Of a stretch of DNA of 38,664 nucleotides, positions 1 through 30,256 are shown piece by piece (within the stretch, counting starts at the first letter, position 1; each line of letters begins with the position of its first letter). The notes beneath the pieces were generated by a model that saw only the letters and a program-made list of their open reading frames with translations, had not been told where the DNA came from and made no database searches. This DNA is from Candidatus Falkowbacteria bacterium (GTDB lineage Bacteria; Patescibacteriota; Patescibacteriia; Patescibacteriales; Patescibacteriaceae): the NCBI GenBank assembly GCA_037130845.1, contig JBAXSE010000013.1, forward strand, positions 1 through 38,664, in the 5' to 3' direction. The position numbers were made by a program, and so were the translations under genes.

Positions 1-40
1 TTACCCCTTGATGCCTAAGCCCGCGTAGCGGGCAAGATAG

Positions 41-76
41 AAACCGCCGGCTTTGACGGCGGTTTTCATTTTTTAC
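41..76. terminator. GC-rich hairpin (ACCGCCG-gctttga-CGGCGGT) followed by T-run; probably terminates an upstream gene outside the window
   Basis: inverted repeat at 43-63 followed by TTTTCATTTTTT. Confidence 0.45.
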
Positions 77-164
77 CTGGCTTGACATTGTTATTAAAAT
101 GTGTTAAAAAAGCCATAATTATTTGAAAATTAATCAGTATTTATGCATATATGTGGAGGTTTTG

Positions 165-1553
165 ATGTTATTGCAACAGGAATATAAGCGTCTTTGCCAG
201 GTCATGACTATGACGGCGGAGCATTTTGGAGTGGACATCGTCCTACCGTCAGTCATCCCTGATGAGTGGCAGACGGAATTTGATAAGAAAAGCAAGGTGG
301 TGTTGAGCCTTGGTTCGCATCATCTGGTTATCATGAGATATCTCAATACCTTGAAGATTGAATTGGTCAGCAATGCTGCTCATAATCTTAAGGATGAATG
401 GGCGCTCAAGGTCCATGACATCGATTTTGTGACTTGGGTCTATGGCAGCTATTTTTCTGCCGATAAGGTGTTTGATTTGACCAAGACGATCGGGACGCAT
501 TATCACCCCGAGATATTTCCTGATAAACCTTGGGAATGGAAAGAGAAAGCACCAACAGAAACAAAGGCGGAAACGATCGGACAATTCCTGCATCTCGAGC
601 CGGAGGTCCCGGTGGTTCCGGATATGGTAGTTGAACCTAATTTCGGCCAGCAGCCGGTAGTTGTGGAGAAAAGGCGGAATTGTCCTCATTGCAATCATCG
701 CTTGACTGCCGAAGAAGTGGCGGATGAATGTTGCAGCAAATGCGAGGAGTATTTCTATGTTTGTCCGCGTTGTTCAGTTCTGCTAAAAGAAGACCCCGAC
801 GACCTGGAAGAGTGCCCCAAATGCCATAAGACCTATCTGCATATCGATTGCCCTAGCAATAATTGCCAAGCCGAAGTCTGGATAGATGCCAAGCACTGTC
901 CTGAGTGCAAGAAGACGTTTGAACGACAGCCTTGCCCGAGCTGTGAAAAGCCGATTATCTTTTCGGAATCACAGGAGGAGTGTCCGCATTGCGGAAATAC
1001 GCTCTATATCTGCCCGCGCTGCCATTGTTATATTGATGAAGATCCTGACGATGTTGAGGAGTGCCCCAAGTGCCATAAGACGCTAAGGATAACCGATTGT
1101 CCTGGTAATCATTGTCGTGCGGATGTTTATGCCGATGCCACGGAATGTCCGGAGTGCCATATGCCCTTTGACCTCAAGCCTTGTCCGAGCTGCGAAAAGC
1201 CGATTATCTTTTCGGAAAATCTGGATGAGTGCCCATATTGCGATACTACGCTCTATATCTGCCCATTCTGCCATGAGTATATAGATGAAGATCCTGACGA
1301 TGCCGATGAATGTCCTAAATGTAAGGCTAGTCTGCGGCAGATGGATTGTCCAAATTGCGGTGACACTATCTTTGCGGATTATAAGTCTTGCCCGGCCTGC
1401 CATACTGAATTCGATTTTATTAAGTGTCCTGTCCTGGGCTGTGAAGAGATGATTATCTTGCACCAAGATGTAGAATCTTGTCCGCATTGTGATTTTGATA
1501 TCACATATACCAAATGCCCGCATTGCGACAAAGCGTATTATGTCGTGGTTTAA
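165..1553 (+). CDS. multi-zinc-ribbon repeat protein (about 15 CPxC/CxxC pairs; unique N-terminal domain then 3 tandem about 83-aa modules)
   Basis: ORF 123..1553 begins with TTG. A better start is ATG at 165, preceded by GGAGG at 155-159. Translation shows repeated ECPKCHKT...CPxC...EDPDD modules. Confidence 0.7.
   Translation: MLLQQEYKRLCQVMTMTAEHFGVDIVLPSVIPDEWQTEFDKKSKVVLSLGSHHLVIMRYLNTLKIELVSNAAHNLKDEWALKVHDIDFVTWVYGSYFSADKVFDLTKTIGTHYHPEIFPDKPWEWKEKAPTETKAETIGQFLHLEPEVPVVPDMVVEPNFGQQPVVVEKRRNCPHCNHRLTAEEVADECCSKCEEYFYVCPRCSVLLKEDPDDLEECPKCHKTYLHIDCPSNNCQAEVWIDAKHCPECKKTFERQPCPSCEKPIIFSESQEECPHCGNTLYICPRCHCYIDEDPDDVEECPKCHKTLRITDCPGNHCRADVYADATECPECHMPFDLKPCPSCEKPIIFSENLDECPYCDTTLYICPFCHEYIDEDPDDADECPKCKASLRQMDCPNCGDTIFADYKSCPACHTEFDFIKCPVLGCEEMIILHQDVESCPHCDFDITYTKCPHCDKAYYVVV
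789..1540 (+). repeat. intragenic tandem repeat, period 249 nt x3 (GAAGA(C/T)CC(C/T)GACGA... at 789, 1038, 1287)
   Basis: direct comparison of DNA at 789-1037, 1038-1286, 1287-1540 shows roughly 70-80% identity; protein modules are in frame. Confidence 0.8.
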
Positions 1554-1762
1554 TATATATCATTCTTTTGGGATTCATATTTACCATAATTAGAAACCAT
1601 TACCATTGAGCCAATAAATAGATATTTGATGAAAATCATCATTTCGAAGCCTTGATACTAACAATATTGAGGCTTTTTATATTATTAGTGTGGGCTTGTA
1701 ATATTTTGATATTTGTGTTTTAATTGACCCACTGTACAAAAAACTAACAAAAAGGAGGCCGT

Positions 1763-2191
1763 ATGTTTGGTCGGATAGAGCCGATTGTGGAGCGTGAATA
1801 CTTGGATGAGGTAGAGCTATTGTCTGTTTGGTTTGAGAATATCAAAGTCGTCAATAATGTATTCTCGCCGGTAGCGGTGTTCTCTTCTTGGTATGCCGCA
1901 GAAAAAGTAGGGGGTAGTCTGGATTTTAAGCAGGCAGCTCTTATTGAACGCACTGGAGAAATGCTAATGAAACATCTGGACGTGGCTTGGTTGATTCAAT
2001 TTTACGCCGCCGCTCCTCGCCATCAGTCCATACTACGTGATATTATCGTCGGTCTTATCGCCGAGTTGGTAGATCGCGAAAACAACACGGGATTGTTGGA
2101 ACACTATCTCTATTATGCGCAAAGATCAAAAGCGATAATAATCCAATCGATTATTCAATACAAAATAGGTGAATTATCGCTTGCCAAGTAA
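1763..2191 (+). CDS. hypothetical protein (142 aa)
   Basis: ORF with strong RBS AAAGGAGG 8 nt upstream of ATG; no recognisable motif. Confidence 0.55.
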   Translation: MFGRIEPIVEREYLDEVELLSVWFENIKVVNNVFSPVAVFSSWYAAEKVGGSLDFKQAALIERTGEMLMKHLDVAWLIQFYAAAPRHQSILRDIIVGLIAELVDRENNTGLLEHYLYYAQRSKAIIIQSIIQYKIGELSLAK

Positions 2192-2291
2192 AGCCCAAGG
2201 TGCAATACCGCGGGCTTTTTATGTACTTTGTTTGCCAAATACAAAAGGGCTAAAATAAAGGATATTTTAGTATATAGCCTGTGGCGAGTCT

Positions 2292-2326
2292 CTCAAACCA
2301 TTGACAGAAATGCCAAAGTATGCTAT
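2292..2326 (+). promoter_or_regulatory. sigma70-like promoter TTGACA-17-TATACT
   Basis: cattgacagaaatgccaaagtatgctatactg upstream of ORF 2381. Confidence 0.6.
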
Positions 2327-2380
2327 ACTGTAAACAATCAAAAAAGTTCATTATATTATCAATAAATTTGGAGCAGCCTA

Positions 2381-2686
2381 ATGTCAGTAAATACATACGA
2401 ATTCGCCACGGAACAGCGCTACATGTTCGGTTTTAATTACAACGGCGGAGCGCCGACAGACGTTATAGTCGAAACGCCGTCGTTGATAAATGACACACAG
2501 ATACTTTTCCATTTCTTGCATGGCCATCATTCACTGGGTGAATTTATCAACAAAAGCGATATTATCGCCGTCGGCGATGATAAGAATGGCACAGTAGGAG
2601 TCAAGGGCTGGTCCGGTAAATATGTCATTTTGAACGAGAAATTGTTTAATCAGTACAAAAAGACCGGTGCTCTGGAATTGAAATAA
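2381..2686 (+). CDS. hypothetical small protein (101 aa)
   Basis: ORF between promoter and terminator; RBS-like GGAGCAG upstream. Confidence 0.55.
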   Translation: MSVNTYEFATEQRYMFGFNYNGGAPTDVIVETPSLINDTQILFHFLHGHHSLGEFINKSDIIAVGDDKNGTVGVKGWSGKYVILNEKLFNQYKKTGALELK

Positions 2687-2692
2687 GTTTAA

Positions 2693-2732
2693 TAGCCGTG
2701 TGAATGATCACCGGCTATTTTTTGTTGTAAAA
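2693..2732 (+). terminator. rho-independent terminator
   Basis: ATAGCCGTG...CACCGGCTAT hairpin followed by TTTTTTG. Confidence 0.6.
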
Positions 2733-2764
2733 TGGCTAAGATATAGGCTATTCTTGCCGTAAGC

Positions 2765-2793
2765 TTGACAAATATGGTAATCTGTGATATAAT
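2765..2793 (+). promoter_or_regulatory. perfect consensus sigma70 promoter TTGACA-17-TATAAT
   Basis: TTGACA at 2765-2770, 17-nt spacer, TATAAT at 2788-2793. Confidence 0.65.
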
Positions 2794-2838
2794 GTAGACA
2801 ATTAAAATTAATTATTGTTAATCTATTGTGGAGTTATC

Positions 2839-3402
2839 GTGAAGTTTTTTATCGTTCTTTTCGCCCTCATATTTGCTACCGTTGCTTATTCGTTTGAAAA
2901 TCAGATCGAAATCGAAAATGCCAGTTGGCCGAAGGTTTCGTCTGTGAATAGCATCAAGCTGGATGTCCTGACTCAGATCCCTGAACAGGGCCATGACTCG
3001 GTTAATATCTACGCTCATGTCGAGATAGAACAGGAAGGGGATTCGGTTAACGGCCGCAGCTTTGTCGGTCTGATCTATAGCTCATTCATGACTATTAATC
3101 TCGGGGTCGGCCTGTGGCAGCACGAACCTTCGCCTGGCGCTAATCTGGGCATCGGGTATAAGTCCGAGCATCATGAATTGGATTTCCAAGTGGATGTGTG
3201 CACGCATCTTAAGCTGAGAGGCTTCTATAACTACAAGGCCGCCGATTGGCTCAAGCTTGGTCTCTACGGCCGCAGTGAATTGGGCATAGGTCCCAGGGCT
3301 ATTATCAGAGCAAGCGAAAGCATTAGTTTAGGTCTTGCCTACAGCTACAATCCGGAAAAAAGCCATGGCTTAGCCTTGGCGCAACTAATTATAAAGTTCT
3401 AA
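2839..3402 (+). CDS. secreted beta-rich protein with N-terminal signal peptide and C-terminal aromatic (..IIKF), OMP-like
   Basis: GTG start at 2839 after GGAG at 2830-2833 (ORF frame opens at 2815). Hydrophobic N-terminus VKFFIVLFALIFATVAYS. Alternating beta-strand-like pattern ending in Phe. Confidence 0.5.
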   Translation: MKFFIVLFALIFATVAYSFENQIEIENASWPKVSSVNSIKLDVLTQIPEQGHDSVNIYAHVEIEQEGDSVNGRSFVGLIYSSFMTINLGVGLWQHEPSPGANLGIGYKSEHHELDFQVDVCTHLKLRGFYNYKAADWLKLGLYGRSELGIGPRAIIRASESISLGLAYSYNPEKSHGLALAQLIIKF

Positions 3403-3409
3403 TCTACGA

Positions 3410-3445
3410 GCCCTCTGACGCAAGTCGGAGGGCTTTTCCGTTTGT
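3410..3445 (+). terminator. rho-independent terminator
   Basis: GCCCTCTGAC-gcaa-GTCGGAGGGC then TTTTCCGTTTG. Confidence 0.7.
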
Positions 3446-3457
3446 TGTTTGTAAATT

Positions 3458-3484
3458 AAAACCCCCTTCATCGGAAGGGGGTTC
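3458..3484 (-). terminator. terminator hairpin for the histidine kinase gene
   Basis: AAACCCCC-ttcatcggaa-GGGGGTT directly after the minus-strand stop at 3489. Confidence 0.5.
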
Positions 3485-3488
3485 GTGT

Positions 3489-6386
3489 TTAGTAATACTT
3501 TTTTAACAGGCTTTCAAGTATCCGCCAGTCGATTGGCTTTTGGATATAGTCGTTACTGCCGGCTTCCAGCGCTTTTTCTTTGTCGCCTGATAAGGCGTGC
3601 GCTGTTTGTGTTATTATTATTACCTCGTGGCTGATAGATCGGATTTGTCTTATGGCGGAATAGCCGTCGAGTTTGGGCAGTTTAATATCCATTAGAATCA
3701 AGTTAATATCTTGATTTGCTTGGAAGATTTCGACAGCCTCTTTGCCATCGAATGCAAATATTATATTTGCATTCGGAATGAACTTGTTTATCGCTTTTTC
3801 TAGCAGTTTTTTTGATGCTTTGTCGTCTTCGGCGATTAGTACTAATAATTTGGAATTTATTAAATCGGACGAAGCTGATGCTTGAAGATTTGATTTTGCT
3901 TCTTTGGTGTCTGGCTTTGGGATAAATGGGATGGTGAAATAAAAAGTTGACCCTTTGTCAATCTCGCTTTCAACCCATATTTCTCCTCCTAACATCTTTA
4001 CATATGCTTGGCATATTGATAGCCCGAGTCCCGTTCCTTGCGTTGCTCTAGAATTATCCACTTGAATAAATCGATCAAAAATGGCCGTTATCATATCTTC
4101 GGGAATGCCTATTCCGCTGTCCTTGATGAAGAATTCAAGGTATTCTGATTTATTTTCGGCGTCAATTTTTTTTGCGCATCCAAACTCAATTAGGCCTTCA
4201 TCGCAGTTCTTGATAGCATTTTTTATCAAGTTTAACAGTATGGCTCGTACTTTTTCTTTGTCGGTGATAACGAGATTATCTCCATCGGCAAGCGGCTTCT
4301 TGAATATAAATCCGATATTTTTTTCTTTTGCCTCAAGCTTTAACAAGTCATAGACAAAGCCGAATTGCTCATTAACTGAGGTGACGGTTTGGTTGACATT
4401 CATTTGTCCGGCCTCGATCTTAGACAGATCGACAACGTCGTTAATGATGTCTAGCAGGTGGTTGCCGCAGTTTTTTATTATATTCAAGTATTCTCGATCT
4501 TCTGTACATGTTATATTGTCCAGCAGCAAGTTCGAAAACCCTAGAATGCCGTTCATAGGCGTTCTTATTTCGTGGCTGATATTTGCCAGAAAGGCTGACT
4601 TGAGTCGGTCGCTTTCTTGCGCTTTGTTCATGGCCTTGACCAAGTCTTCTCTCATGTGAATTTGCTCTGTAACATCAATTAGAATGCCTTGAAGGACTGG
4701 GCTCTCATGCTCTGTGTTTAAGAGACGGCTGTATACGGTAGCCGAGATAATTGTGCCATCCTTGGTTCTAAACCGATAAGTGTTATTGCCGGTCAGCACT
4801 CCTTGGATGGAATCGCTTAGATTCTTTCGGCCCCTTTCTCTGTCTTCTTCGACTATCAGATTGAAGATATTCATGCCTTGGCCGATTTCTTTTTCGGTGT
4901 AGCCGAAGACTTCAAACGATTGCTTGTTGAGCAGCGTAGCATTGCCCAGACTGTCAATCTGGAAGACTACTTCCGGCATCATTTCCAGGATGTTGCTCAT
5001 TTTTTGCTGGCTGTCTTCAAGCGCTTTTTCGATTTGTTTGCGTTGCAACGACCCTCCGATCGCGATGCTGATGCCTTCCATAAAATTAATAAACTCAAGA
5101 GTGAACTGGTTTTTTCGCAAGTCGTTTAGCTGCAATAGTCCGATTATTTCTTTGTTTATTTTGAGCGGTATCAGGGCAACCGATAAATATCCTTCGTGGA
5201 TACAACGATTGCGCGGGTTGTGCCTAGGGTCTTGTTCCGGAGAGAGGCTGAGTAAATCTAGCAAATTATTGATCCATGCGCTGCCATAATTGGTAAATAG
5301 TTGGTTATTGCTGTCTGTTTTGCCAGAAACAACTAATCCGCAAGTGCATTCGAGGCTAATTTCTCCTTGTTCGTTGTGGCAAAAAGCTTGATTTTTGCTG
5401 ATGAGCGATCTTTCTGCTATGAGAAATTTATTGTCAAAGCCTTTGCTGGCGTAATAAGGGAAGTCGTGTTCTTGTTTAAGTCTTATGCCGACAGCGCTTA
5501 TGTTTAATCTCCTTTTGATAATGCTTATAATCTTGTCGATAGTTTCTTCTAGTGAATATGTTTCATTAAGGATTTTGAGTATCTCGATAAACATTTCTTG
5601 ATTGCTTTCGTGCTTTTTCCTTTTTGTAACATCTTTGCTGATACCGCGGTAGCCTAATAATTCGCCATTTTTGTCCTGTATGGGATAGCCATTAGTCAAG
5701 AAACAGACGGGCTGTCCATTCTTATGAAGATTCCAATTCTCTAAATCAACTATGGCTTTTTTTTCTGCTGCGATGTTGTTTAGCACTTCTTTGATGCGAG
5801 CCTGTTCATTCTCCGGCATCAGATCATAGAGCGTGATGCCAATAATCTCGTTAGGTGAATACCCTAATGTATCTTCTATTTGTTTTGAACAGTAAGTGTA
5901 TTCCGAGTTTGAGTTTATCTCCCAGGCTATATTGGATGAACTAAGGACGATGTCCTTAAACCGTTGCTTGCTTTCTTGCAGCTCAAGCTGCCTCCTTATT
6001 TCCGATGTCATATCCCGAGATACAATTTGAACAAATTCGATTGCATTGCCGTTATAAATCGGTGACATAGTTGAACTGACCCACGCAATTGTGGTGTCTC
6101 CTGAGTTGATTGGCCTGTAGTTGGCTTTTGTAACAATGCCTTCTAGGCATTTGTTGAAGATTTCTCGCATATGGCCGGCAGTATCTACTTGGAAAAACGG
6201 CAACTCATAAAAGAGCTTGCCAATCAAGCTATTTTCGCCGTTTTCTTGCGTAATGGCTATTGCTTTTGAATTACAGGTAATAATTATCTCATTTCTATCG
6301 ATAATAAATATGGCGTCAGAGCTATTGAGAAAGTAATTTTGATACAGTTTGCTTAGCTCGGCTTCTCCCGGTGAGTCGTTTTTCAT
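3489..6386 (-). CDS. cytoplasmic multi-PAS hybrid sensor histidine kinase / response regulator (965 aa)
   Basis: H-box SHEIRTPMNGILG; HATPase motifs (DSGIGIP, GTGLGL); C-terminal receiver domain (LVLIAEDD...MDIKLPKLDG...); no TM segments; several PAS-like blocks. Confidence 0.85.
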   Translation of the reverse strand: MKNDSPGEAELSKLYQNYFLNSSDAIFIIDRNEIIITCNSKAIAITQENGENSLIGKLFYELPFFQVDTAGHMREIFNKCLEGIVTKANYRPINSGDTTIAWVSSTMSPIYNGNAIEFVQIVSRDMTSEIRRQLELQESKQRFKDIVLSSSNIAWEINSNSEYTYCSKQIEDTLGYSPNEIIGITLYDLMPENEQARIKEVLNNIAAEKKAIVDLENWNLHKNGQPVCFLTNGYPIQDKNGELLGYRGISKDVTKRKKHESNQEMFIEILKILNETYSLEETIDKIISIIKRRLNISAVGIRLKQEHDFPYYASKGFDNKFLIAERSLISKNQAFCHNEQGEISLECTCGLVVSGKTDSNNQLFTNYGSAWINNLLDLLSLSPEQDPRHNPRNRCIHEGYLSVALIPLKINKEIIGLLQLNDLRKNQFTLEFINFMEGISIAIGGSLQRKQIEKALEDSQQKMSNILEMMPEVVFQIDSLGNATLLNKQSFEVFGYTEKEIGQGMNIFNLIVEEDRERGRKNLSDSIQGVLTGNNTYRFRTKDGTIISATVYSRLLNTEHESPVLQGILIDVTEQIHMREDLVKAMNKAQESDRLKSAFLANISHEIRTPMNGILGFSNLLLDNITCTEDREYLNIIKNCGNHLLDIINDVVDLSKIEAGQMNVNQTVTSVNEQFGFVYDLLKLEAKEKNIGFIFKKPLADGDNLVITDKEKVRAILLNLIKNAIKNCDEGLIEFGCAKKIDAENKSEYLEFFIKDSGIGIPEDMITAIFDRFIQVDNSRATQGTGLGLSICQAYVKMLGGEIWVESEIDKGSTFYFTIPFIPKPDTKEAKSNLQASASSDLINSKLLVLIAEDDKASKKLLEKAINKFIPNANIIFAFDGKEAVEIFQANQDINLILMDIKLPKLDGYSAIRQIRSISHEVIIITQTAHALSGDKEKALEAGSNDYIQKPIDWRILESLLKKYY

Positions 6387-7870: not shown

Positions 7871-8953
7871 ATGCCTAAGTGCGGAAAAATTAAGTCCGGA
7901 TTTACTTTAATTGAGCTGTTGGTTGTTATTGTGATTATTGGAGTGTTGGCCAGCTTGACAATGCTGGCCTTGAATAACGCTCGAGCCAAGAGTAGGGATG
8001 CTAAGCGGGTTAATGATATTCGGCAGATTAGCACTGCTGTTGAATTGTATTATGCTGAATACGGTATTTATCCTAGTTCTATTGCTAATGCTATTATTAG
8101 CGCTGATGGCACTAAAACATATATGGCCAAGACGCCGACTAATCCCAGTCCGATGAACGATGGCAGTTGCGGCGCTGACAATTACACTTATGCTACCACC
8201 TCGGATGCTACCGATTATTCATTGAACTTTTGTTTGGCTTATGGCGCAGGCGCTTTGTCGCCCGGCATTGGTTCGGTGAGCAAAGGCGGTTTTGATACCG
8301 CTCCCGGATTGATCGGCTGGTGGAAATTTTCTGACGGCAATAGTCCGGTAATTGATAGCAGCGGTAAAAGCAATAGCGGCTCGAATAATGGAGCAACTTG
8401 GGGCGCTGACAGCGGCCAATATGGCGGAGGGGCCTACACCTTCGATGGCGTTAATGATGCCATAGCTACTAATTCAAACATCTTGAATAACGCGACCGAA
8501 TTTACAATCGCTTTTTGGACCAAGCCATTGAGTTTTGGCGGTTGGAAAGGAATGATCGGCAAAGGTACGAGCGATACTAATGTTATAACGGTGCAGGCGG
8601 ATACGGGCGGGCGCATCTATGTCGACGTTGACAACGGTGTGTCAAATTCTTTTGCCAATACTGGCTTGGGTGTTTTGTCAGTCGGCCAGTGGGCGCACGT
8701 GGCGGCCGTTTATCAGGGTAGCGGCGCTACTAATGCTGATCGGGTAAAAGTCTATGTTAATGGCGCTAACTTGGCATTAACTTTTAGCGGAACGATCCCA
8801 ACGCAAACAGCTACATCCAACGCCGGCATTCTCTATATTGGTCAGCTCGGTTATGCCAGCAATTTCTATAATGGAATTATGGATGATGTGCGTATTTACA
8901 GCCGCAGTTTATTGCCCGAAGAGATAAGCGCGTTGTATAATTTTTCTAAATAA
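7871..8953 (+). CDS. type IV pilin-like protein with C-terminal LamG/concanavalin-like domain
   Basis: prepilin leader and N-terminal helix MPKCGKIKSG|FTLIELLVVIVIIGVLAS; C-terminal half matches LamG-like fold signatures (GLIGWW, FTIAFW, VYVNG, DDVRIY); ATG 7871 is downstream of the -10 at 7815-7820. Confidence 0.75.
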   Translation: MPKCGKIKSGFTLIELLVVIVIIGVLASLTMLALNNARAKSRDAKRVNDIRQISTAVELYYAEYGIYPSSIANAIISADGTKTYMAKTPTNPSPMNDGSCGADNYTYATTSDATDYSLNFCLAYGAGALSPGIGSVSKGGFDTAPGLIGWWKFSDGNSPVIDSSGKSNSGSNNGATWGADSGQYGGGAYTFDGVNDAIATNSNILNNATEFTIAFWTKPLSFGGWKGMIGKGTSDTNVITVQADTGGRIYVDVDNGVSNSFANTGLGVLSVGQWAHVAAVYQGSGATNADRVKVYVNGANLALTFSGTIPTQTATSNAGILYIGQLGYASNFYNGIMDDVRIYSRSLLPEEISALYNFSK

Positions 8954-8958
8954 AGTTT

Positions 8959-9258
8959 GTGGCAAATGATATTTACTACATCGCCGGCATCTTGCTGGCG
9001 CTCAACCTGATCGCCTTCGCGGCGATGATGGTAGACAAGATCAAGTCGGCCAAGACAGGCAAGCGGCGCATTTCCGAAGGCATGCTGTTCTTTATGGCAA
9101 CGCTCTTCGGCAGCGTCGGCGTCTATGCCGGCATGTTCGCCTTCCGCCACAAGACCAGGAAATGGTATTTTTTGATCGGCATTCCGCTCTTGATGATCGA
9201 GAACGCCGCCTTGCTCTATCTGCTTTATTTATTTTTGAGTGGAACGGTTATTTGGTAA
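8959..9258 (+). CDS. DUF1294-family small membrane protein
   Basis: GTG start; motif DK..A..G.RRISE..L...A..GGS.GV.AGM.AFRHKTRK. Confidence 0.65.
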   Translation: MANDIYYIAGILLALNLIAFAAMMVDKIKSAKTGKRRISEGMLFFMATLFGSVGVYAGMFAFRHKTRKWYFLIGIPLLMIENAALLYLLYLFLSGTVIW

Positions 9259-9278
9259 TATTCTATGGACTAGAGGCG

Positions 9279-9306
9279 CCCAAGCAAAGGCGTCTTTTTT
9301 GTTAAA
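9279..9306 (+). terminator. rho-independent terminator
   Basis: AGGCGCC-caagcaaa-GGCGTCT + TTTTTTG. Confidence 0.55.
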
Positions 9307-9432
9307 CTTAGGCTTTTTTAGCCAAGGTGGAACATTTGACAAAGCGCCGATATAATACTATTTTAAGCATGTTCTTTGAAAAATAAATATAATTAAGAAA
9401 ACATAAATTTAAGATAAATTTTGGAGGTAGTC

Positions 9433-9876
9433 ATGTATTACGTATTCGTCGGAGTGGTGGTTGTATCCGGTGTATTCTACCACATATCACAAAAAGAAGT
9501 GCCCAAGTCGGTTAACCCGATGGCGTCGTTGGCCTTTAGCTATATCATAGCTTTGATTGGTTCTATAATTCTTTTGCCGGTTGTCTCCAGATTATCAGAA
9601 GCAAGTAAGTCTTTGAATCTGGACAAATTGACGCAGGCGGTAAATTGGCCCAGTTTCTTTGTCGGGGTCACGATAATCGGTATAGAAATCGGCGTAATGA
9701 TGGCCTATCGTTATGGCGGTAAGATGAATAATACGTCGTTGATTATTTATTCGACGATTGCGGCTGTTTTGTTTTTGGTAGGAGTCTATCATTATAATGA
9801 AACAATCTCCTGGCAAAAATTATTTGGCGCAGTATTATGTTTTGTCGGCCTCGTAGTAATGGCGTTAAGTAAATAA
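9433..9876 (+). CDS. small integral membrane protein (4 predicted TM helices)
   Basis: GGAGG at 9423-9427 then ATG 9433; hydrophobic throughout. Confidence 0.6.
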   Translation: MYYVFVGVVVVSGVFYHISQKEVPKSVNPMASLAFSYIIALIGSIILLPVVSRLSEASKSLNLDKLTQAVNWPSFFVGVTIIGIEIGVMMAYRYGGKMNNTSLIIYSTIAAVLFLVGVYHYNETISWQKLFGAVLCFVGLVVMALSK

Positions 9877-9898
9877 AGATCACGTTCAAATAATGTTT

Positions 9899-9930
9899 AG
9901 CCCCTAGAAATAGGGGCTTTATTTTATTTT
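9899..9930 (+). terminator. rho-independent terminator
   Basis: AGCCCCTA-gaaa-TAGGGGCT followed by TTATTTTATTTT. Confidence 0.75.
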
Positions 9931-10083
9931 GGCTTATGTTAGCCAAATTCAGAGAGAGCCAACCTCGATTGACAAAAGGCCCGGAAAGTCCTAGATTAAA
10001 GAGTTAAATGCACCTTAACAACAAAAAATCCTTAACCATAAATAAAATATTGGCAATTTGTATAACTATTTCGGAGATTAATA

Positions 10084-11499
10084 ATGGCAGAAGGCAACAA
10101 AGCCAAGGGCATAGTCAAACCTGAGCGTCCGGGAGGATTCCTGGATTTTTTACCGGCCGATTATCTGGCGCGGGAAAGAATCTTTGGCATCATAGCAAAA
10201 GTTTTCCGGTCTTATGGCTACGATCCGATCGAAACACCGATGGTGGAATTTGCAAAATCCCTTGTCGGCGAAGACGAAACATCGAAAAATATATTCTATA
10301 TTTCCAACAAGAATAAGAATATGACGCAAGAAGGGCAGTTGGGTTTGCGTTTTGACCACACTGTACCCTTTGCCAGATTGTTAGCGGCTAATCCATACAA
10401 CGCCGACACTAAAGAAGGCATTAAACTGCCTTGGCGCCGTATGGTGGTTGGTCCGGTGTTCAGGGGCGAAAGTCCGCAGAAAGGGCGTTACCGCCAGTTC
10501 TATCAATTCGATGTCGATATAGTCGGAGTTTCTTCCATGATGGCAGATGCTGAGATTGTGGCTATAATCTATGAAACTCTGACAGCTTTAGGGCTTGATG
10601 ATTTTGTAATCAAGATTAATAATCGCAAGTTATTAAATGGCTTGGCGGAATTATTGGATGTCCACGATAGGGCGGAAGTAAATCGAGATGATATTACCAA
10701 GGCTATTTTTAGAATCTTGGATAAATTGGATAAAATCGGCCTGGATCAGGTATTGTTTGAATTAACGCAAGAGCCTGACAGCATCTTCGATCCGGCGCCT
10801 AATTTATCGTCAGAGGCTGGAGAAAAGATCAAATCTTTTATTAATATCGATGGTGACAACTACGAGAAATTAATAAAAGCTAAAACAGTCTTTGCGGGTC
10901 TAAGTATCGCCGAAGACGGCATAAAGGAATTAGAGCAGATCTTAGGATTTACAGCTGATCTCGGCGTTCCGAGCGATAAGGTGTTAGTTGACTTTGGCGT
11001 TGCTCGCGGGCTGGATTATTATACCGGTCCGGTGATGGAGACAAGTTTGCTGACTGCGCCGGAATTCGGCAGTGTTTTCTCGGGAGGCCGTTACAACAAT
11101 CTGATGGAACGTTTTACAGGACAAGAATTGCCCGCGGTCGGCGCGTCTATCGGAGTCGATAGATTATTTGCCGCCTTAAGGCAGCTTGGTTTGTTGGACG
11201 TTAGTCGGGCTACCATTACCGATGTTTTGGTAATGCGCATTGCGGACAATCTTGATAGTGAATATCTGGAAATCGCCAAGATAATCAGGCGCTGTGGCCT
11301 GAATACGGAGGTTTCTATGCTTGAAGACAGGACTTTTAAGGCTCAATTCAATTTTGCGTTGGGTCGTGGCGTTAAATACGCCATTATTTACGGAGAAAAT
11401 GAATCAATCAAGCGCACAATCCAGATTAAGAATCTAAGCACTCGAAAACAGACAGAAATTAATTTTTCCGATTTGGAAATATATTTTAATAATATTTAA
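10084..11499 (+). CDS. hisS: histidyl-tRNA synthetase
   Basis: class II aaRS motifs RFDHTVPFAR, ESPQKGRYRQFYQ (identical core to E. coli HisRS), GGRYNNL, plus C-terminal anticodon-binding domain. Confidence 0.9.
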   Translation: MAEGNKAKGIVKPERPGGFLDFLPADYLARERIFGIIAKVFRSYGYDPIETPMVEFAKSLVGEDETSKNIFYISNKNKNMTQEGQLGLRFDHTVPFARLLAANPYNADTKEGIKLPWRRMVVGPVFRGESPQKGRYRQFYQFDVDIVGVSSMMADAEIVAIIYETLTALGLDDFVIKINNRKLLNGLAELLDVHDRAEVNRDDITKAIFRILDKLDKIGLDQVLFELTQEPDSIFDPAPNLSSEAGEKIKSFINIDGDNYEKLIKAKTVFAGLSIAEDGIKELEQILGFTADLGVPSDKVLVDFGVARGLDYYTGPVMETSLLTAPEFGSVFSGGRYNNLMERFTGQELPAVGASIGVDRLFAALRQLGLLDVSRATITDVLVMRIADNLDSEYLEIAKIIRRCGLNTEVSMLEDRTFKAQFNFALGRGVKYAIIYGENESIKRTIQIKNLSTRKQTEINFSDLEIYFNNI

Positions 11500-11513
11500 T
11501 TTAGGAGTCAGAC

Positions 11514-13169
11514 ATGGAAAGGACTATTAGTCTAGATGGTCGCACTTTAACGCTGCAAGACGTTGTCTTGATAGCTCGCGGCTATCGCGGCCAAGACGGA
11601 CATCAACATTATCCATATGTTGAGTTATCCGAACAAGCACAAGCAGATATTGGCAGTTTTCGCCACGGCCTTGATCTTCGGATCGCGGCTGGCGATATTA
11701 TCTACGGTGTCAATACCGGTTGCGGTGTCAAGAAAGGCACTATCATTGATCAGAAAGAGATCGATGCCTATCAGGCTCATTATATTCCGGCGCATTGTGT
11801 CGGTTATGGCGAACCTTTTGATGAAGAAATTGTCAGAGCCGCTCTTGTTTTGCGGGTCAACTCTTTCGCCTTGGGAAATTCCGGAATCAGGCTGGAAACC
11901 TGCAATAAATTGTTGGAAATCTACAACAAGGGCGTGATTCCCTTTGTACCCGAACAGGGTTCGGTGGGCTCCAGCGGTGATTTGTGCCCGTTGGCTCATG
12001 TTGCGGCAGTCATTACTGGCGTCGAAGGACAACAAGCATTCTACCACGGCAAATTGATGCAAGCGGCAGAAGCTTTGTCGCTTGCCGGCATCGATCCGAT
12101 AGTATTAAAAGCCAAAGAAGCGATGGGCTTGACTAACGGCGCAACCTTAACTTTAGCCATGGGCTTGCTTGCTATTCATGATAGCAAAAAATTAATAGCG
12201 TATTCCCATATGGCGGCAGCATTGTCGCTTGAGGCGATCCGCGGTGAAAAAAACGCCTTTGACCCCAGAATCCACGAGGCCAGAAAGAACCAGCATAGCG
12301 CCAGAGTAGCGAAAATCATTCGTGACCTGACCAGCGGTTCAGACCGCATGACTACGTCAGCTAGAGATGTCTGTTTGACGGATGAGAAGAAATCGAAGAA
12401 ATATCAGGACGATGCTAAATCAAGGCCGACTCCTCGGGTCCAGGATGCCTATTCTTTCCGCGCCTATGCCCAGGTGGCAGGACCGGTGGTTAAAGCATTC
12501 GAGTATGCCGAAGAAGTCTTTTTGTCGGAAATGAATGCAGCTACAGATAATCCATTGATCTTTAAGAGCGGATTCGGGGAGAATGAAAGGTTTGAAGCGA
12601 TATCCGGTGGCAATTTTCATGGCGAACCGTTGGGTCAAGCAGCTGATTTTCTTAAGATTGCCATCCAGCAGTTGGCCAACATTTCCGATCGGCGTTTCTA
12701 TGCCTTGACGATGTCCACGACCAGCTATGGCTTGCCGGATGATTTGGCTGGAGCAATTAATCGCGATCTGAATACGGGATTAATGATCCTCCAATACACG
12801 ACAGCTGCTTTGGTATCAGAGAATAAAGCATTATGTTATCCTTCGGTTATCGATTCTATTCCGACTTCTGCAAACCAAGAAGATTATGTCAGTATGTCAA
12901 CTATCGGCGCGCGTAATCTGCGCAAGGTGATAAAAAATACTTATGGCGTTATCGGTGCCGAATTATTGGCTGCTGCCCAGGGCATATCACTGACCGAAGA
13001 CCAGCTAAGGCCGCTCGAGCTTGATGGCTTGGGAAGAGAAACTACCTTTGTTTATAAGAAGGTCCGCCAGGTAGTCGCCGCAATGTATGAAGATCGTTAT
13101 ATCCACAAAGATTTCAAGGCTTTGGTCGATTTCATGATAAAGTCTGATCCTCAGGATTTCTTACCATAG
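11514..13169 (+). CDS. hutH: MIO-dependent aromatic amino-acid ammonia-lyase family (histidine ammonia-lyase-like)
   Basis: GSVGSSGDLCPLAH (MIO-forming triad region, here Ser-Ser-Gly), NTG.G, overall HAL/PAL architecture; contains an extra charged insert EKKSKKYQDDAKSRPTPR. Confidence 0.75.
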   Translation: MERTISLDGRTLTLQDVVLIARGYRGQDGHQHYPYVELSEQAQADIGSFRHGLDLRIAAGDIIYGVNTGCGVKKGTIIDQKEIDAYQAHYIPAHCVGYGEPFDEEIVRAALVLRVNSFALGNSGIRLETCNKLLEIYNKGVIPFVPEQGSVGSSGDLCPLAHVAAVITGVEGQQAFYHGKLMQAAEALSLAGIDPIVLKAKEAMGLTNGATLTLAMGLLAIHDSKKLIAYSHMAAALSLEAIRGEKNAFDPRIHEARKNQHSARVAKIIRDLTSGSDRMTTSARDVCLTDEKKSKKYQDDAKSRPTPRVQDAYSFRAYAQVAGPVVKAFEYAEEVFLSEMNAATDNPLIFKSGFGENERFEAISGGNFHGEPLGQAADFLKIAIQQLANISDRRFYALTMSTTSYGLPDDLAGAINRDLNTGLMILQYTTAALVSENKALCYPSVIDSIPTSANQEDYVSMSTIGARNLRKVIKNTYGVIGAELLAAAQGISLTEDQLRPLELDGLGRETTFVYKKVRQVVAAMYEDRYIHKDFKALVDFMIKSDPQDFLP

Positions 13170-13184
13170 TTCTGTATAGCTATC

Positions 13185-13220
13185 TTGCCGACCTTCGGAC
13201 CTGGGTCGGCTTTTTTTTGG
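13185..13220 (+). terminator. rho-independent terminator
   Basis: GCCGACC-ttcggacctgg-GTCGGC + TTTTTTTT. Confidence 0.7.
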
Positions 13221-13251
13221 CTATTCGTAGTAAAATTGGATTGGCTGGCAT

Positions 13252-13286
13252 TTGACAAAACTAGGAATCATGCTAGAATATTGAAC
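13252..13286 (+). promoter_or_regulatory. sigma70-like promoter TTGACA-16-TAGAAT
   Basis: ttgacaaaactaggaatcatgctagaat upstream of ORF 13327. Confidence 0.5.
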
Positions 13287-13326
13287 AAAATAAAAATATC
13301 AGTTCATTAATAAAAAGGGTTAAAAG

Positions 13327-13995
13327 ATGCAAAAAAATACCTGCACTTATAGGAAAATAAATAACCTTGATAATGCCGCAGAAGCTGAAAAGTTAGCGCG
13401 TTGCTATCAGGAGGTTTTTGCCGGTTATCCTTGGAATGAATACAAGAAATGCCCTGATTGCGGGGTGAGGTGGGGCAAAGAAGATGCGCCGGAAGATGGA
13501 CGTTGTTCAAAATGTGATGCTACTCCCGTTCTTGTTGATTTCTGGGCGAAGGAGGATGTTATAAATGATTTCCAAAAACAATTACAAAGCTCCAGCGGCG
13601 TGTTGTGTGTTGCGGTTAATTCCAGAGACGAGATTACGGGTTTCTGTTCCGGTTACGAAACTACTCCCGAAGAATTGGAAAAGCATTTGCAGCTTCCTGA
13701 ATTGGCCAAATGGTTGCGTTGTTATTTTCCCAATGGTGTTAGATTCGGTTATCAAGATGAGATCGGCGTTCTCGATTCGTATCGAGGGCAGAAGATTGCT
13801 ACCGAACTTTTCAAGAAAAGAATGGAAGATTTTAAGGCAAGTGGTTTGGATATAGCTGTATTAAGAACCAAGACTATGCCTCCGACCATAACCTTTAAAT
13901 GGTACCCTCGATTGGGTTATAGTGTCATCCAATGTTATCATGATGATGATTGCCGTGTAATTATGGCGACAGAAATCAAGAGTATTCAGTTGTAG
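13327..13995 (+). CDS. GNAT-family N-acetyltransferase with an embedded CxxC...CxxC zinc ribbon
   Basis: GNAT motif A GVLDSYRGQKIATELF; insert CPDCG...CSKCD. Confidence 0.6.
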   Translation: MQKNTCTYRKINNLDNAAEAEKLARCYQEVFAGYPWNEYKKCPDCGVRWGKEDAPEDGRCSKCDATPVLVDFWAKEDVINDFQKQLQSSSGVLCVAVNSRDEITGFCSGYETTPEELEKHLQLPELAKWLRCYFPNGVRFGYQDEIGVLDSYRGQKIATELFKKRMEDFKASGLDIAVLRTKTMPPTITFKWYPRLGYSVIQCYHDDDCRVIMATEIKSIQL

Positions 13996-14019
13996 AACAG
14001 TTGAGCTTTACATGCCGAT

Positions 14020-14094
14020 GGACGCGTAGCTCAGTTGGCCCAGAGCAATGGATTGTGGCTCCATTTGTCACGGGTTCGATTCCCGTCGCGTCCA
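14020..14094 (+). tRNA. tRNA-His (anticodon GTG), discriminator A73, no genomically encoded G-1, no encoded CCA
   Basis: manual cloverleaf: acceptor GGACGCG/CGCGTCC 7 bp, D-stem GCTC/GAGC, anticodon stem ATGGA/TCCAT with loop TTGTGGC, T-arm ACGGG-TTCGATT-CCCGT. Confidence 0.85.
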
Positions 14095-14097
14095 CGA

Positions 14098-29560: not shown

Positions 29561-29598
29561 TCAAACTGAACATATTGTGTTATTATTATGTAAAAGAC

Positions 29599-29880
29599 AT
29601 GAAAAAAAATATCTTCACCAAGAAATTCGATATCTTTAATAAGATCGATCGATATAGCATGCGTGACGCCGGTACTGACCATTCTTTTTTAAATGAGCTG
29701 GTTGGCTTTTGTTTCGCGCCGCTATGGTACTTGCTTGGAGGTGGAAGTAAATTTTTGCAGCGGACGCTGAAAGGTAAATTGATTTATTCGCTTATTCCGT
29801 TGCTTGCGGCCATTATCGGTATTATTATTTTTTTAATTATTATCCTGGGTGCTTTATTAATAAGCAAATTTATAAAATAA
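29599..29880 (+). CDS. small membrane protein
   Basis: ATG 29599 (MKKNIF...) in ORF that opens with TTG 29575; C-terminal TM helix IPLLAAIIGIIIFLIIILGALLI. Confidence 0.4.
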   Translation: MKKNIFTKKFDIFNKIDRYSMRDAGTDHSFLNELVGFCFAPLWYLLGGGSKFLQRTLKGKLIYSLIPLLAAIIGIIIFLIIILGALLISKFIK

Positions 29881-29890
29881 TTTTATATTT

Positions 29891-30256
29891 ATGATGAAGG
29901 AAACGAGCAAATCGCTCAAGGCATATTTTATGATTATCGGCGTGCTCGGAATGTTTTCTGGCATAATCGATGTTCTGGGTTCTCTTGACTCGATGAACGG
30001 TAAATTATTTTTTATTGGAGTAATCGAGTTGGTGATGGCTTTGCTATTTATATATTTTGGTTTTAAAATTGATCGATATCTGAGACGCTCGCCAAAAATT
30101 TTAATCGCCTTTATTGCTGTTGTGGTGGCGATCAGATGTGTCGTGGCTTTGTTGGGTAAGGGATATGCCGCAATCGTTGCCTCTTTATTGATTGGCTGGT
30201 ATCTAATCTATAATGTCAAGAAATTATCACTACTGGTTAAAGAGGTAAAAAAATAA
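29891..30256 (+). CDS. small integral membrane protein (3-4 TM)
   Basis: hydrophobic ORF; no homology recognisable. Confidence 0.45.
   Translation: MMKETSKSLKAYFMIIGVLGMFSGIIDVLGSLDSMNGKLFFIGVIELVMALLFIYFGFKIDRYLRRSPKILIAFIAVVVAIRCVVALLGKGYAAIVASLLIGWYLIYNVKKLSLLVKEVKK

Follow-up and report, generated by a model that had tools for sequence, protein, structure and literature searches.

A modular zinc-ribbon protein of Candidatus Falkowbacteria and its possible role as a scaffold or adaptor of SPFH membrane assemblies

Membrane systems built on SPFH/flotillin proteins and their NfeD partners are, to our knowledge, universal, and we know little of the clients and adaptors that they use in bacteria. 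Candidate-phyla-radiation (CPR) bacteria are rich in unassigned proteins. Small zinc ribbons (ZnRs) formed by the pairing of C(P)xC knuckles are the building block of the Pfam families DZR (PF12773), DZR_2 and Zn_ribbon_6, for example in Salmonella YfgJ (PDB 2jrp), and we are aware of no established function for DZR. One close described system is pspA-ydjGHI of Bacillus subtilis, in which YdjG, with two ZnRs, and YdjI, a band-7 protein, show mutual dependence for membrane localization (PMC11237479, PMC8581546). YdjI itself combines an SPFH/band-7 domain with a C-terminal ZnR (PMC11237479), and an SPFH+CC+ZnR architecture has been described in archaea (PMC10936438). A second relevant arrangement is the NfeD/YqiJ-flotillin operon (YuaF-FloT, YqiJ-YqiK); the literature found on these operons describes no multi-zinc-ribbon or beta-carbonic-anhydrase-like (CA-like) protein as a regular member.

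The window analysed here is a 38,664-nt stretch of contig JBAXSE010000013.1 (assembly GCA_037130845.1, Candidatus Falkowbacteria bacterium). The zinc-ribbon gene, the parts of its product and its flanking elements are arranged as follows.

1 to 18, forward strand: end of an IS200/IS605-type TnpA gene (LPLDA and stop), upstream context outside the protein
40 to 75, forward strand: terminator-like hairpin with a T-run (10-bp stem with 6 GC pairs, then CATTTTTTAC)
72 to 100, forward strand: promoter-like site TTTACC-17-TAAAAT, a consensus match only
155 to 159, forward strand: ribosome-binding site GGAGG, 5 nt 5' of the ATG, as read from the sequence
165 to 1553, forward strand: CDS for 462 aa and a stop codon, the product being identical to NCBI entry "hypothetical protein WCO55_03925, Candidatus Falkowbacteria"
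165 to 488, forward strand: N-terminal alpha/beta domain, aa 1-108, element order a-a-b-b-b-a-b-b, the family signature
489 to 680, forward strand: Pro/Glu-rich linker, aa 109-172 (about 64 aa), mostly disordered (pLDDT below 50 at residues 109-167)
681 to 788, forward strand: leading half-module, aa 173-208, knuckles CPHC, CSKC and CPRC (module HMM positions 46-80)
789 to 1037, forward strand: module 1, internal type, aa 209-291, six knuckles (from repeat search, alignment, module HMM and module tree)
1038 to 1286, forward strand: module 2, internal type, aa 292-374, six knuckles, sister of module 1 (74% nucleotide and 67.5% amino acid identity)
1287 to 1553, forward strand: module 3 plus stop codon, ancestral terminal type, aa 375-462, six knuckles
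1646 to 1686, forward strand: terminator-like hairpin with a T-run 3' of the gene

The gene is real and conserved, and the open reading frame with a 249-nt (83-aa) periodicity described in an earlier note on this DNA is confirmed. Translation begins at ATG 165, which encodes the same Met as the start of the homologs in their alignment, and stops at 1551 to 1553; a 75%-identical ortholog (L001) has the same GGAGG-tttt-ATG arrangement. The upstream gene was recognized from an overlapping locus, L013, in which the translation of positions 1-420 is Y1-transposase-like with the C-terminus LPLDA, position 1 of the window being L013 position 403. The hairpin at 40 to 75 divides this gene from the zinc-ribbon gene, and the terminator-like hairpin beyond the latter suggests a monocistronic unit. 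In this genome the zinc-ribbon gene is solitary: it adjoins an IS200-type transposase and is flanked by a promoter-like and a terminator-like site of its own. No RNA family of Rfam was found in window positions 1-3500, and neither the protein nor any of the three genes downstream of it matched an anti-phage defence model of PADLOC or a phage model of PHROGs.

As the earlier note had it, zinc-ribbon knuckles are the dominant element of the protein, and they are set in super-modules of 83 aa produced through tandem duplication in frame. The estimate of about 15 knuckle pairs or ribbons gives way to 21 CxxC/Cx4C knuckles and about 10 ribbons: the 290 aa of the array contain 44 Cys (15% Cys), and 21 knuckles allow at most 10 complete predicted Cys4 sites with one orphan knuckle left over. 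Each full module has six knuckles, which correspond to three predicted zinc ribbons of Pfam DZR type. DZR is the sole Pfam match of the protein (score 57.2 bits, curated gathering cutoff 27.3 bits; E 1.8e-15; four stretches), and the Pfam search upholds the earlier statement that no catalytic domain is recognizable; NCBIfam was negative, and a precomputed PF12773 match is also listed for P0001. The best stretch, residues 366-412, places CPFC, CPKC, CPNC and CPAC on profile positions 1-44 of 45. In the AlphaFold2 (AF2) model every knuckle lies within a beta-hairpin (pLDDT about 90), and the DSSP string of the model fits both registers in which knuckles could be paired; the register of the DZR profile favours the last knuckle as the putative orphan. 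Sequence searches of PDB with the protein gave nothing significant (2jrp at E 0.18), and comparison of the full-length model with PDB returned only non-significant zinc-finger arrays, e.g., RBR and TRAF6. The Cys content would fit a metallothionein-like store, whereas the ribbons of the model are separate beta-hairpins, not clusters. Rubredoxins typically have knuckles separated by roughly 29 residues. The CPxC knuckle pairs of the array resemble rubredoxin ligands, and in one relative (L002) genes for desulfoferrodoxin and thioredoxin follow a short way downstream, a few genes on, as might be expected of a multi-centre electron carrier with rubredoxin-like iron sites. Such a carrier is nevertheless barely credible, since the gaps between knuckles are 6-13 residues, the Gly that follows a knuckle is mostly missing, Pfam returns no rubredoxin family match even at E up to 1, and the redox neighbours are absent from the gene set conserved at other loci.

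The N-terminal portion is more composite than the unique domain of about 200 aa that had been proposed. It consists of a folded 108-aa domain (pLDDT 94 in the AF2 model), the linker, which varies in length and sequence between homologs and is gap-rich in their alignment, and a half-module corresponding to the final part of a full module, matched at HMM positions 46-80 in every family member. The N-domain does stand without a known relative: it has no detectable fold relative, and a PDB search with its profile yielded nothing significant. A CesT/Tir-like (T3SS-chaperone-like) assignment was considered and rejected, since neither structure nor profile comparison gave a significant match with CesT/YbjN-type folds. 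The module HMM recognizes the full modules with E values of 1e-40 to 1e-47, these modules carry a conserved acidic EDPDD loop, and module 3 terminates in a conserved tail, CPxCxxx[FYH]Y[IVL].

No hydrophobic segment is present (maximum 19-residue hydropathy 1.24, not transmembrane), and the predicted protein is soluble and strongly acidic, an acidity conserved across the family. The array contains 59 D/E against 25 K/R, for a pI of 4.6, and array pI is 4.05-5.07 in every other family member except one, the paralog P0021, which is basic (pI 8.8). Nucleic acids are bound by the zinc ribbons of TFIIS, primases and topoisomerase I (cited in PMC3581485), and together with the basic paralog this gives some ground for reading the protein as a nucleic-acid-binding zinc-ribbon array, the scaffold suggested at first. 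The charge of the array makes that reading very improbable; each Zn(Cys)4 site would add further negative charge, Pfam and NCBIfam detect no HTH or other DNA-binding domain, and the neighbours of the family are membrane-scaffold proteins, not nucleic-acid enzymes.

The direct repeat has a period of 249 nt, with copies at 789, 1038 and 1287 demonstrated by repeat search, alignment and the module HMM; Tandem Repeats Finder, run on positions 1-3000, did not report the array. The DNA identity of about 75% once given for all copies holds for copies 1 and 2 (74-76%); copy 3 is 54% identical to copy 1 and 57% to copy 2. The longest exact run common to the copies is 24 nt. Copies 1 and 2 differ by a dS of 0.96 (dN/dS 0.24). 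Measured over the whole gene, the distance from the ortholog L001, which likewise has three modules in the same order, is dN 0.154 and dS 1.20. In the module tree, modules 1 and 2 group as sisters, and every one of the three copies is matched by a separate ortholog in L001. Judged from these alignments, copies 1 and 2 derive from one duplication of an internal module that predates the split from this ortholog, the division between internal and terminal modules is ancestral to the family, and this one duplication is all that the lineage has added; the module copy so gained, which brings the count to three, is under purifying selection. The previously claimed three duplications do not describe this history, and nor, in view of the dS of about 1 and an origin before the split from L001, does an evolutionarily recent expansion.

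Whether copy number changes is a separate matter. The gene is nucleotide-identical (0 mismatches, same length) in four other independent assemblies (ENA ERZ27300010, JGI 3300021605 and the two Logan runs SRR7053532 and SRR7053533), which indicates that the repeat does not stem from misassembly and is no contingency locus. Family members do differ in their number of full modules, from 1 to 4 or more, with a knuckle count that is always 3+6n; P0016 has one full module and the 62%-identical P0003 two, a difference of exactly one module. Two relatives also have reading frames disrupted within the repeats, L001 (ERZ19399218 scaffold_13306) through a TGA at 4778-4780 and L006 (JAUSEA010000122.1) through a frameshift at about 7905-7918. 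Variation of this kind is what would be expected if in-frame repeats often changed copy number within populations and so varied the protein, but such a contingency locus has next to no likelihood here, given the four invariant assemblies, the equal module number and order in the ortholog, and copies 1 and 2 that are just 74% identical, share no long exact run and escape Tandem Repeats Finder. The early suggestion that copy number can change is therefore sound at the scale of the family and fails for this locus as a contingency-prone one, and the repeat is instead old, stable and under purifying selection. The L001 TGA is improbable as a selenocysteine codon: a hairpin begins 11 nt past the UGA, folding no better than shuffled sequences (z -1.56), and Rfam finds no SECIS-type match around it.

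The family is tiny, comes from CPR bacteria, and is neither common nor characterized. Fifteen matches in 15 clusters were recovered among 1.84 billion representatives, with Pfam DZR as the only known signature (homologs also match DZR_2 and Zn_ribbon_6). A scan of GTDB species representatives with a tighter alignment found no relative, and a metagenome scan added three further loci. Compared with DZR proteins, which have two ribbons, the protein here has about ten, organized in a fixed three-ribbon super-module of 83 aa with its EDPDD loop and preceded by a family-specific N-domain. Two other proteins indicate that all-zinc-ribbon arrays are unusual yet not unique: P0015 is such an array of 339 aa with 24 knuckles and a DZR match, and it lacks both the N-domain and the 83-aa module, while L004:10338-11906 encodes a 522-aa DZR protein with a long run of CxxC knuckles, a divergent paralog beside P0014.

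An indication of function comes from the neighbourhoods of the relatives, which were sampled in nine lineages. At 7 of 9 informative loci the zinc-ribbon gene lies just upstream, on the same strand, of genes for an NfeD/YqiJ-like membrane protein and flotillin/SPFH proteins, and a beta-CA-like gene often occurs within these clusters. The gene orders are given below.

L002/L003 and L008: ZnR, NfeD-like, Band_7+Flot, Pro_CA_2 (in L002 at 8001-9002, 9173-9781, 9812-11242 and 11243-11854, respectively)
L012: NfeD-like gene begins directly after ZnR
L007: ZnR, then 8 nt further on a TM protein, NfeD_TM, flotillin
L009: ZnR carrying an inserted Pro_CA domain, ZnR paralog, N-domain-only paralog, TM protein, NfeD-like, Band_7
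L011: ZnR, two small ORFs, YqiJ_N, Band_7, NicO
L006: CA-like, ZnR, Vault_3/MVP_shoulder (a vault-shoulder-like SPFH protein)

In L009 the association extends to a fusion, with the beta-CA domain placed between the N-domain and the ribbons. These loci resemble ydjGHI in that genes for a zinc-ribbon protein, an SPFH/band-7 protein and a small membrane partner lie side by side, and the downstream genes are exactly the pair of the NfeD/YqiJ-flotillin operons, an NfeD C-terminal/YqiJ_N domain protein followed by Band_7+Flot. The Bacillus system differs from the one here in several respects. YdjG has two N-terminal ZnRs, an NTF2-like domain and a transmembrane segment, whereas the protein here has about ten C-terminal ribbons with neither an NTF2-like match nor a transmembrane segment; the membrane partner is the TPM-domain protein YdjH in Bacillus and an NfeD/YqiJ-like protein in the relatives; no pspA occurs among the predicted genes or Pfam matches of the loci inspected; and no homology to the YdjG-type system was detected outside the ribbons. 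The adjacency is absent from the window and from the Falkowbacteria relative L004. Neither an SPFH nor an NfeD gene adjoins the window gene, the one Band_7 gene present being 29 kb distant, and tblastn within the window found no paralog, NfeD-like gene or CA-like gene. The window gene stands alone, and its proposed link to SPFH proteins is drawn from its homologs. Even at linked loci adjacency need not mean co-transcription, as a promoter-like site separates the ZnR gene from nfeD in L002 and L008, in the latter accompanied by a terminator-like hairpin, and in a sample of nine lineages the SPFH adjacency may be inherited synteny.

The reading preferred here, to which a probability of roughly 45% is assigned, is that the protein is non-enzymatic and zinc-stabilized and serves SPFH membrane assemblies as a scaffold or adaptor. 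The protein would work as a bead-on-a-string adaptor at the cytoplasmic face of SPFH/NfeD assemblies, docking through the N-domain and/or the conserved C-terminal tail with its orphan knuckle. The repeated ribbons would be beads that bind proteins, the CA-like protein being the foremost candidate client, and the number of modules would set reach or valency. Zinc-ribbon ("C+") ribosomal proteins constitute a mobilizable zinc pool in Bacillus. By analogy, the main rival to the scaffold reading is a zinc reservoir, buffer or metallochaperone, in which the approximately ten predicted Cys4 sites would form a zinc stock from which zinc enzymes, for instance the co-encoded beta-CA-like proteins, are supplied; this role is considered unlikely. 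As a more specific and quite doubtful proposal, the family might be a dedicated new component of a CPR-specific membrane assembly of SPFH (flotillin/vault-shoulder-like), NfeD and beta-carbonic-anhydrase proteins, namely an acidic multi-zinc rod recruited into or onto an SPFH cage, whose terminal CxxC knuckle, always left as an orphan, would take part in a zinc site completed in trans, be it by a second chain in a zinc-hook-like dimer or by a partner protein. If so, zinc handling, or CO2/bicarbonate/pH homeostasis, would be coupled to a membrane microdomain.

The most informative features are the conserved N-domain family and the flotillin/NfeD/carbonic-anhydrase neighbourhood of its relatives. 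An N-domain with no detected relative, joined to a modular zinc-ribbon rod and recurring beside flotillin, NfeD and beta-CA-like genes, makes the protein a concrete, testable candidate partner of SPFH systems, and the family provides a clean natural example of protein length variation through the gain and loss of whole modules.

The multi-zinc-ribbon protein encoded in the window has 462 amino acids: an N-domain (residues 1-108), a linker, and a zinc-ribbon array in which a half-module precedes three full modules of 83 amino acids. ATG 165 is the biologically sensible start, given the GGAGG 5' of it at 155-159 and the same starting Met in homologs. The gene is predicted to be a solitary unit:

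40-66: terminator-like hairpin, before the gene
72-100: promoter-like site, before the gene
165-1553 (+): multi-zinc-ribbon gene, stop codon 1551-1553
789, 1038, 1287: anchor copies of a direct repeat with 249-nt spacing, from a repeat search
1646-1676: terminator-like hairpin, after the gene

The repeat register is borne out by three-way alignment of the copies, the first two being 76% identical over 228 ungapped nt. Tandem Repeats Finder did not call the array at 789-1553, because the third copy is far more diverged. An HMM made from these 83-aa units matches all three (E 1e-40 to 1e-47), which places the 249-nt/83-aa periodicity far beyond chance, and also matches the leading partial unit (residues 163-208, module positions 46-80). 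Nine contigs carry an identical 462-aa protein, and the 1389-nt gene shows 0 mismatches to the window in 4/4 independent assemblies (ENA ERZ27300010, JGI 3300021605, Logan SRR7053532, Logan SRR7053533). The 75%-identical ortholog at locus L001, from a different sample, is colinear with the same three modules. The gene is neither an artefact nor unstable, and the array described in the earlier note is real; its count and its date need revision.

The last 290 residues contain 44 Cys and 21 CxxC/Cx4C knuckles, three belonging to the half-module and six to every full module, where about 15 pairs had been reported. Since 21 is odd, no more than 10 Cys4 sites can be completed in cis, leaving one knuckle over. 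The only significant family match is Pfam DZR (57 bits), in keeping with a zinc-ribbon array that has no enzyme domain, as the earlier note had read it; no rubredoxin family came up in the Pfam search at E up to 1 and the gaps between knuckles are 6-13 residues, both of which disfavor rubredoxin-like redox chemistry. The two-ribbon DZR profile aligns to residues 366-412 with four knuckles, favoring pairing across the long gaps (10-13 residues), in which case the very last knuckle, KCPHCDKAYYVVV, would be the orphan. The sites presumably bind zinc, and the orphan may have a role. The tail of the last knuckle, CPxCxxx[FYH]Y[IVL], is kept at the C-terminus of most members. In a full-length AlphaFold2 model made with the family alignment (mean pLDDT 83), residues 1-108 and 170-462 lie near pLDDT 90 and residues 109-167 below 50, with each knuckle at a beta-hairpin tip. 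The N-domain modelled alone reaches pLDDT 94 and pTM 0.86, in the order a-a-b-b-b-a-b-b. The protein has no hydrophobic segment. The array is strongly acidic (D/E 59 vs K/R 25, pI 4.6), an acidity matched by all family members but one, and nucleic-acid binding, one of the scaffold roles first proposed, is disfavored by this composition.

A neighbor-joining tree built on every full module in the family joins query modules 1 and 2 as sisters, each paired with its L001 counterpart, and clusters module 3 with terminal modules from the remaining members. These groupings indicate that the internal-versus-terminal distinction is ancestral to the family. Tandem in-frame duplication is borne out; in place of the three duplications originally counted, the query lineage gained one extra internal module before splitting from the L001 lineage.

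Divergence between modules of the window gene
Modules 1 and 2: nt identity 74%, aa 67.5%, dS 0.96, dN/dS 0.24
Modules 1 and 3: nt identity 54%, aa 44%, dS saturated, dN/dS not computable
Modules 2 and 3: nt identity 57%, aa 47%, dS saturated, dN/dS not computable

For the whole gene against the L001 ortholog, dN is 0.154 and dS 1.20. By these estimates the duplication is old rather than recent and its copies are under purifying selection. Contingency variation of module number, also suggested earlier, is disfavored by the dS between modules 1 and 2, the lack of mismatches among assemblies, the three modules of the ortholog, and a longest exact run of 24 nt common to modules 1 and 2.

Module number does vary across the family.

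Full modules per member
One: P0016
Two: most members
Three: the query, L001, P0009, P0010/P0020, P0019, L006 (frameshift read through)
Four or more: P0014, P0024

Knuckle counts fit 3+6n, save in a few truncated or degenerate members, and P0016 and P0003 (62% identical) differ by exactly one module; evolutionary modularity is supported by these comparisons. Two reading frames are broken within the repeats. At L001:4778-4780 (ENA ERZ19399218 scaffold_13306) knuckle 8 has an in-frame TGA where the window encodes its first Cys (TGT at 981-983), so that gene calling yields a protein of only 275 aa, P0002. Past the TGA there is no further stop up to 5344, and dN/dS against the query is 0.07-0.25 in the downstream modules. 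A hairpin beginning 11 nt 3' of the UGA is no better than shuffles (z -1.56), and an Rfam search there gave no match. The TGA could be a sequencing error or very recent pseudogenization, and is improbably a selenocysteine codon. The second is L006:7001-8420 (P0012, Parcubacteria MAG GCA_030650315.1), frameshifted near 7905-7918; its +1 frame adds two complete modules, ending ...CPHCGKKHYVQNEN, so the real P0012 protein has three modules, of which the 305-aa call covers only a truncated part. Long antisense ORFs opposite the repeats (window 1083-1523 (-), L006:7905-8417 (-), L001:5015-5329 (-)), annotated as genes by gene callers in two relatives, are conserved only as a mirror of the sense strand and thus look like annotation artefacts.

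A word-indexed search of 5.8 billion proteins gave 15 matches, and an exhaustive HMMER search of 1.84 billion cluster representatives with an N-domain profile found 15 proteins; available source names are Candidatus Falkowbacteria and Parcubacteria MAGs. The N-domain has no relatives in Pfam, NCBIfam or PDB sequences, PADLOC and PHROGs searches with the protein were negative, and the literature yielded nothing on this multi-zinc-ribbon family, which is, as anticipated, uncharacterized. The window protein combines multiple DZR-type zinc ribbons, arranged in a fixed three-ribbon super-module, with an N-domain specific to its family. The N-domain also occurs without ribbons, in L009:8283-9164 (acidic linker, helical C-terminus) and P0022 (coiled-coil-like region), and so is an independent module combinable with other C-termini.

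Of nine distinct members whose flanks could be used, seven have an SPFH/NfeD-type neighborhood; the window and L004, a relative from Falkowbacteria, do not.

Genes beside the zinc-ribbon gene in relatives
L002/L003 (P0004): downstream, NfeD-like membrane protein, Band_7+Flot flotillin, Pro_CA_2-like protein
L008 (P0006): downstream, the same three types
L012 (P0008): downstream, the same NfeD-like gene starts, then contig end
L007 (P0005): after an 8-nt gap, TM protein, NfeD_TM, flotillin
L009 (P0013, P0021): downstream, zinc-ribbon paralog P0021, N-domain-only paralog, TM protein, NfeD-like, Band_7
L011 (P0020): downstream, two small ORFs, YqiJ_N, Band_7, NicO-type transporter
L006 (P0012): CA-like gene upstream, 903-aa Vault_3/MVP_shoulder protein downstream

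Identity between these members is only 30-40%, and adjacency kept at such distance suggests functional coupling. A promoter-like site separates the zinc-ribbon gene from nfeD in L002 and L008, with a terminator-like hairpin also in L008, so that in both the gene may be a neighbor that is not co-transcribed. The association with NfeD-flotillin-beta-CA-like clusters is unreported. The MVP shoulder is SPFH-related (PMC3581485); the protein at L006:8470-11181 combines it with Major-Vault-Protein repeat domains, and is uncommon for a Parcubacteria-type bacterium. The beta-CA-like proteins that accompany the cluster (L002:11243-11854, L008:4989-5636, L006:6531-6914) match Pro_CA_2; those of L002 and L008 retain the beta-CA motifs CxDxR and HxxC and carry an extra N-terminal DivIVA-like coiled coil. 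P0013 has a bona fide canonical beta-carbonic-anhydrase domain (residues 156-348, NCBIfam 3e-39) as an insertion separating its N-domain from its ribbons, a Rosetta-stone link to the CA-like neighbors. This fusion, the neighbors themselves and the NicO transporter of L011 would also suit a zinc reservoir or chaperone, the main rival explanation, which we consider unlikely.

Upstream of the window gene are the last codons (1-18; cf. L013:1-420) of an IS200/IS605-type (Y1) transposase; downstream are three small ORFs without family matches and then, in opposite orientation, a hybrid histidine kinase. Each of the four independent assemblies breaks off no more than about 570 nt ahead of the gene, presumably at the repeated element, which may explain the missing flotillin-type neighborhood. 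The only SPFH gene of the window, 29 kb away, encodes a 790-aa SPFH/Band_7 protein with an N-terminal TM segment and, ahead of the Band_7 domain, four internal repeats NF(Q/Y)DGEAFL..GG(Q/E)(K/R)G.Q. HisRS, part of a histidine-themed cluster (10084-14095), also lies ~4 kb downstream of P0014 in L004, a hint that some synteny persists within Falkowbacteria. An 878-aa protein that matches RNA-polymerase Rpb2 domain 6 at the N-terminus and Rpb1 domain 1 later in the chain strongly matches two function-unassigned PHROGs (8.5e-56 and 1e-25); it resembles a two-barrel RNA-polymerase-like protein made as a single chain, not a normal rpoB/rpoC.

Other features of the window
10084-11499: histidyl-tRNA synthetase
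11514-13169: aromatic amino-acid/histidine ammonia-lyase family enzyme
13327-13995: GNAT acetyltransferase
14020-14095: tRNA-His
24070-26706 (+): 878-aa RNA-polymerase-like protein
29575-30256: two small multi-TM ORFs ahead of the SPFH/Band_7 gene
30504-32876 (+): 790-aa SPFH/Band_7 protein

Partnership of zinc-ribbon and SPFH proteins is recurrent in published work (PMC11237479, PMC8581546, PMC10936438). In the pspA-ydjGHI system of B. subtilis YdjG bears two zinc ribbons, YdjI is a band-7 protein, and the proteins depend mutually on one another for membrane localization (PMC11237479, PMC8581546). [quoted passage not shown] Given these partnerships, the reading taken as most likely, tentatively and at a probability of about 0.45, is that the family comprises soluble, zinc-stabilized adaptors or scaffolds. 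Such a protein would act on the cytoplasmic side of NfeD/SPFH assemblies; the CA-like protein is the strongest candidate for a client, and the number of modules would set reach or valency. The analysis establishes the domain layout, the DZR membership, the acidity and conservation of the protein, and the gene neighborhood; zinc binding, docking, client proteins and a role for the orphan knuckle are inferred. The multi-zinc-ribbon family gives a good starting point for work on SPFH proteins of CPR bacteria, its mechanism still being a proposal.
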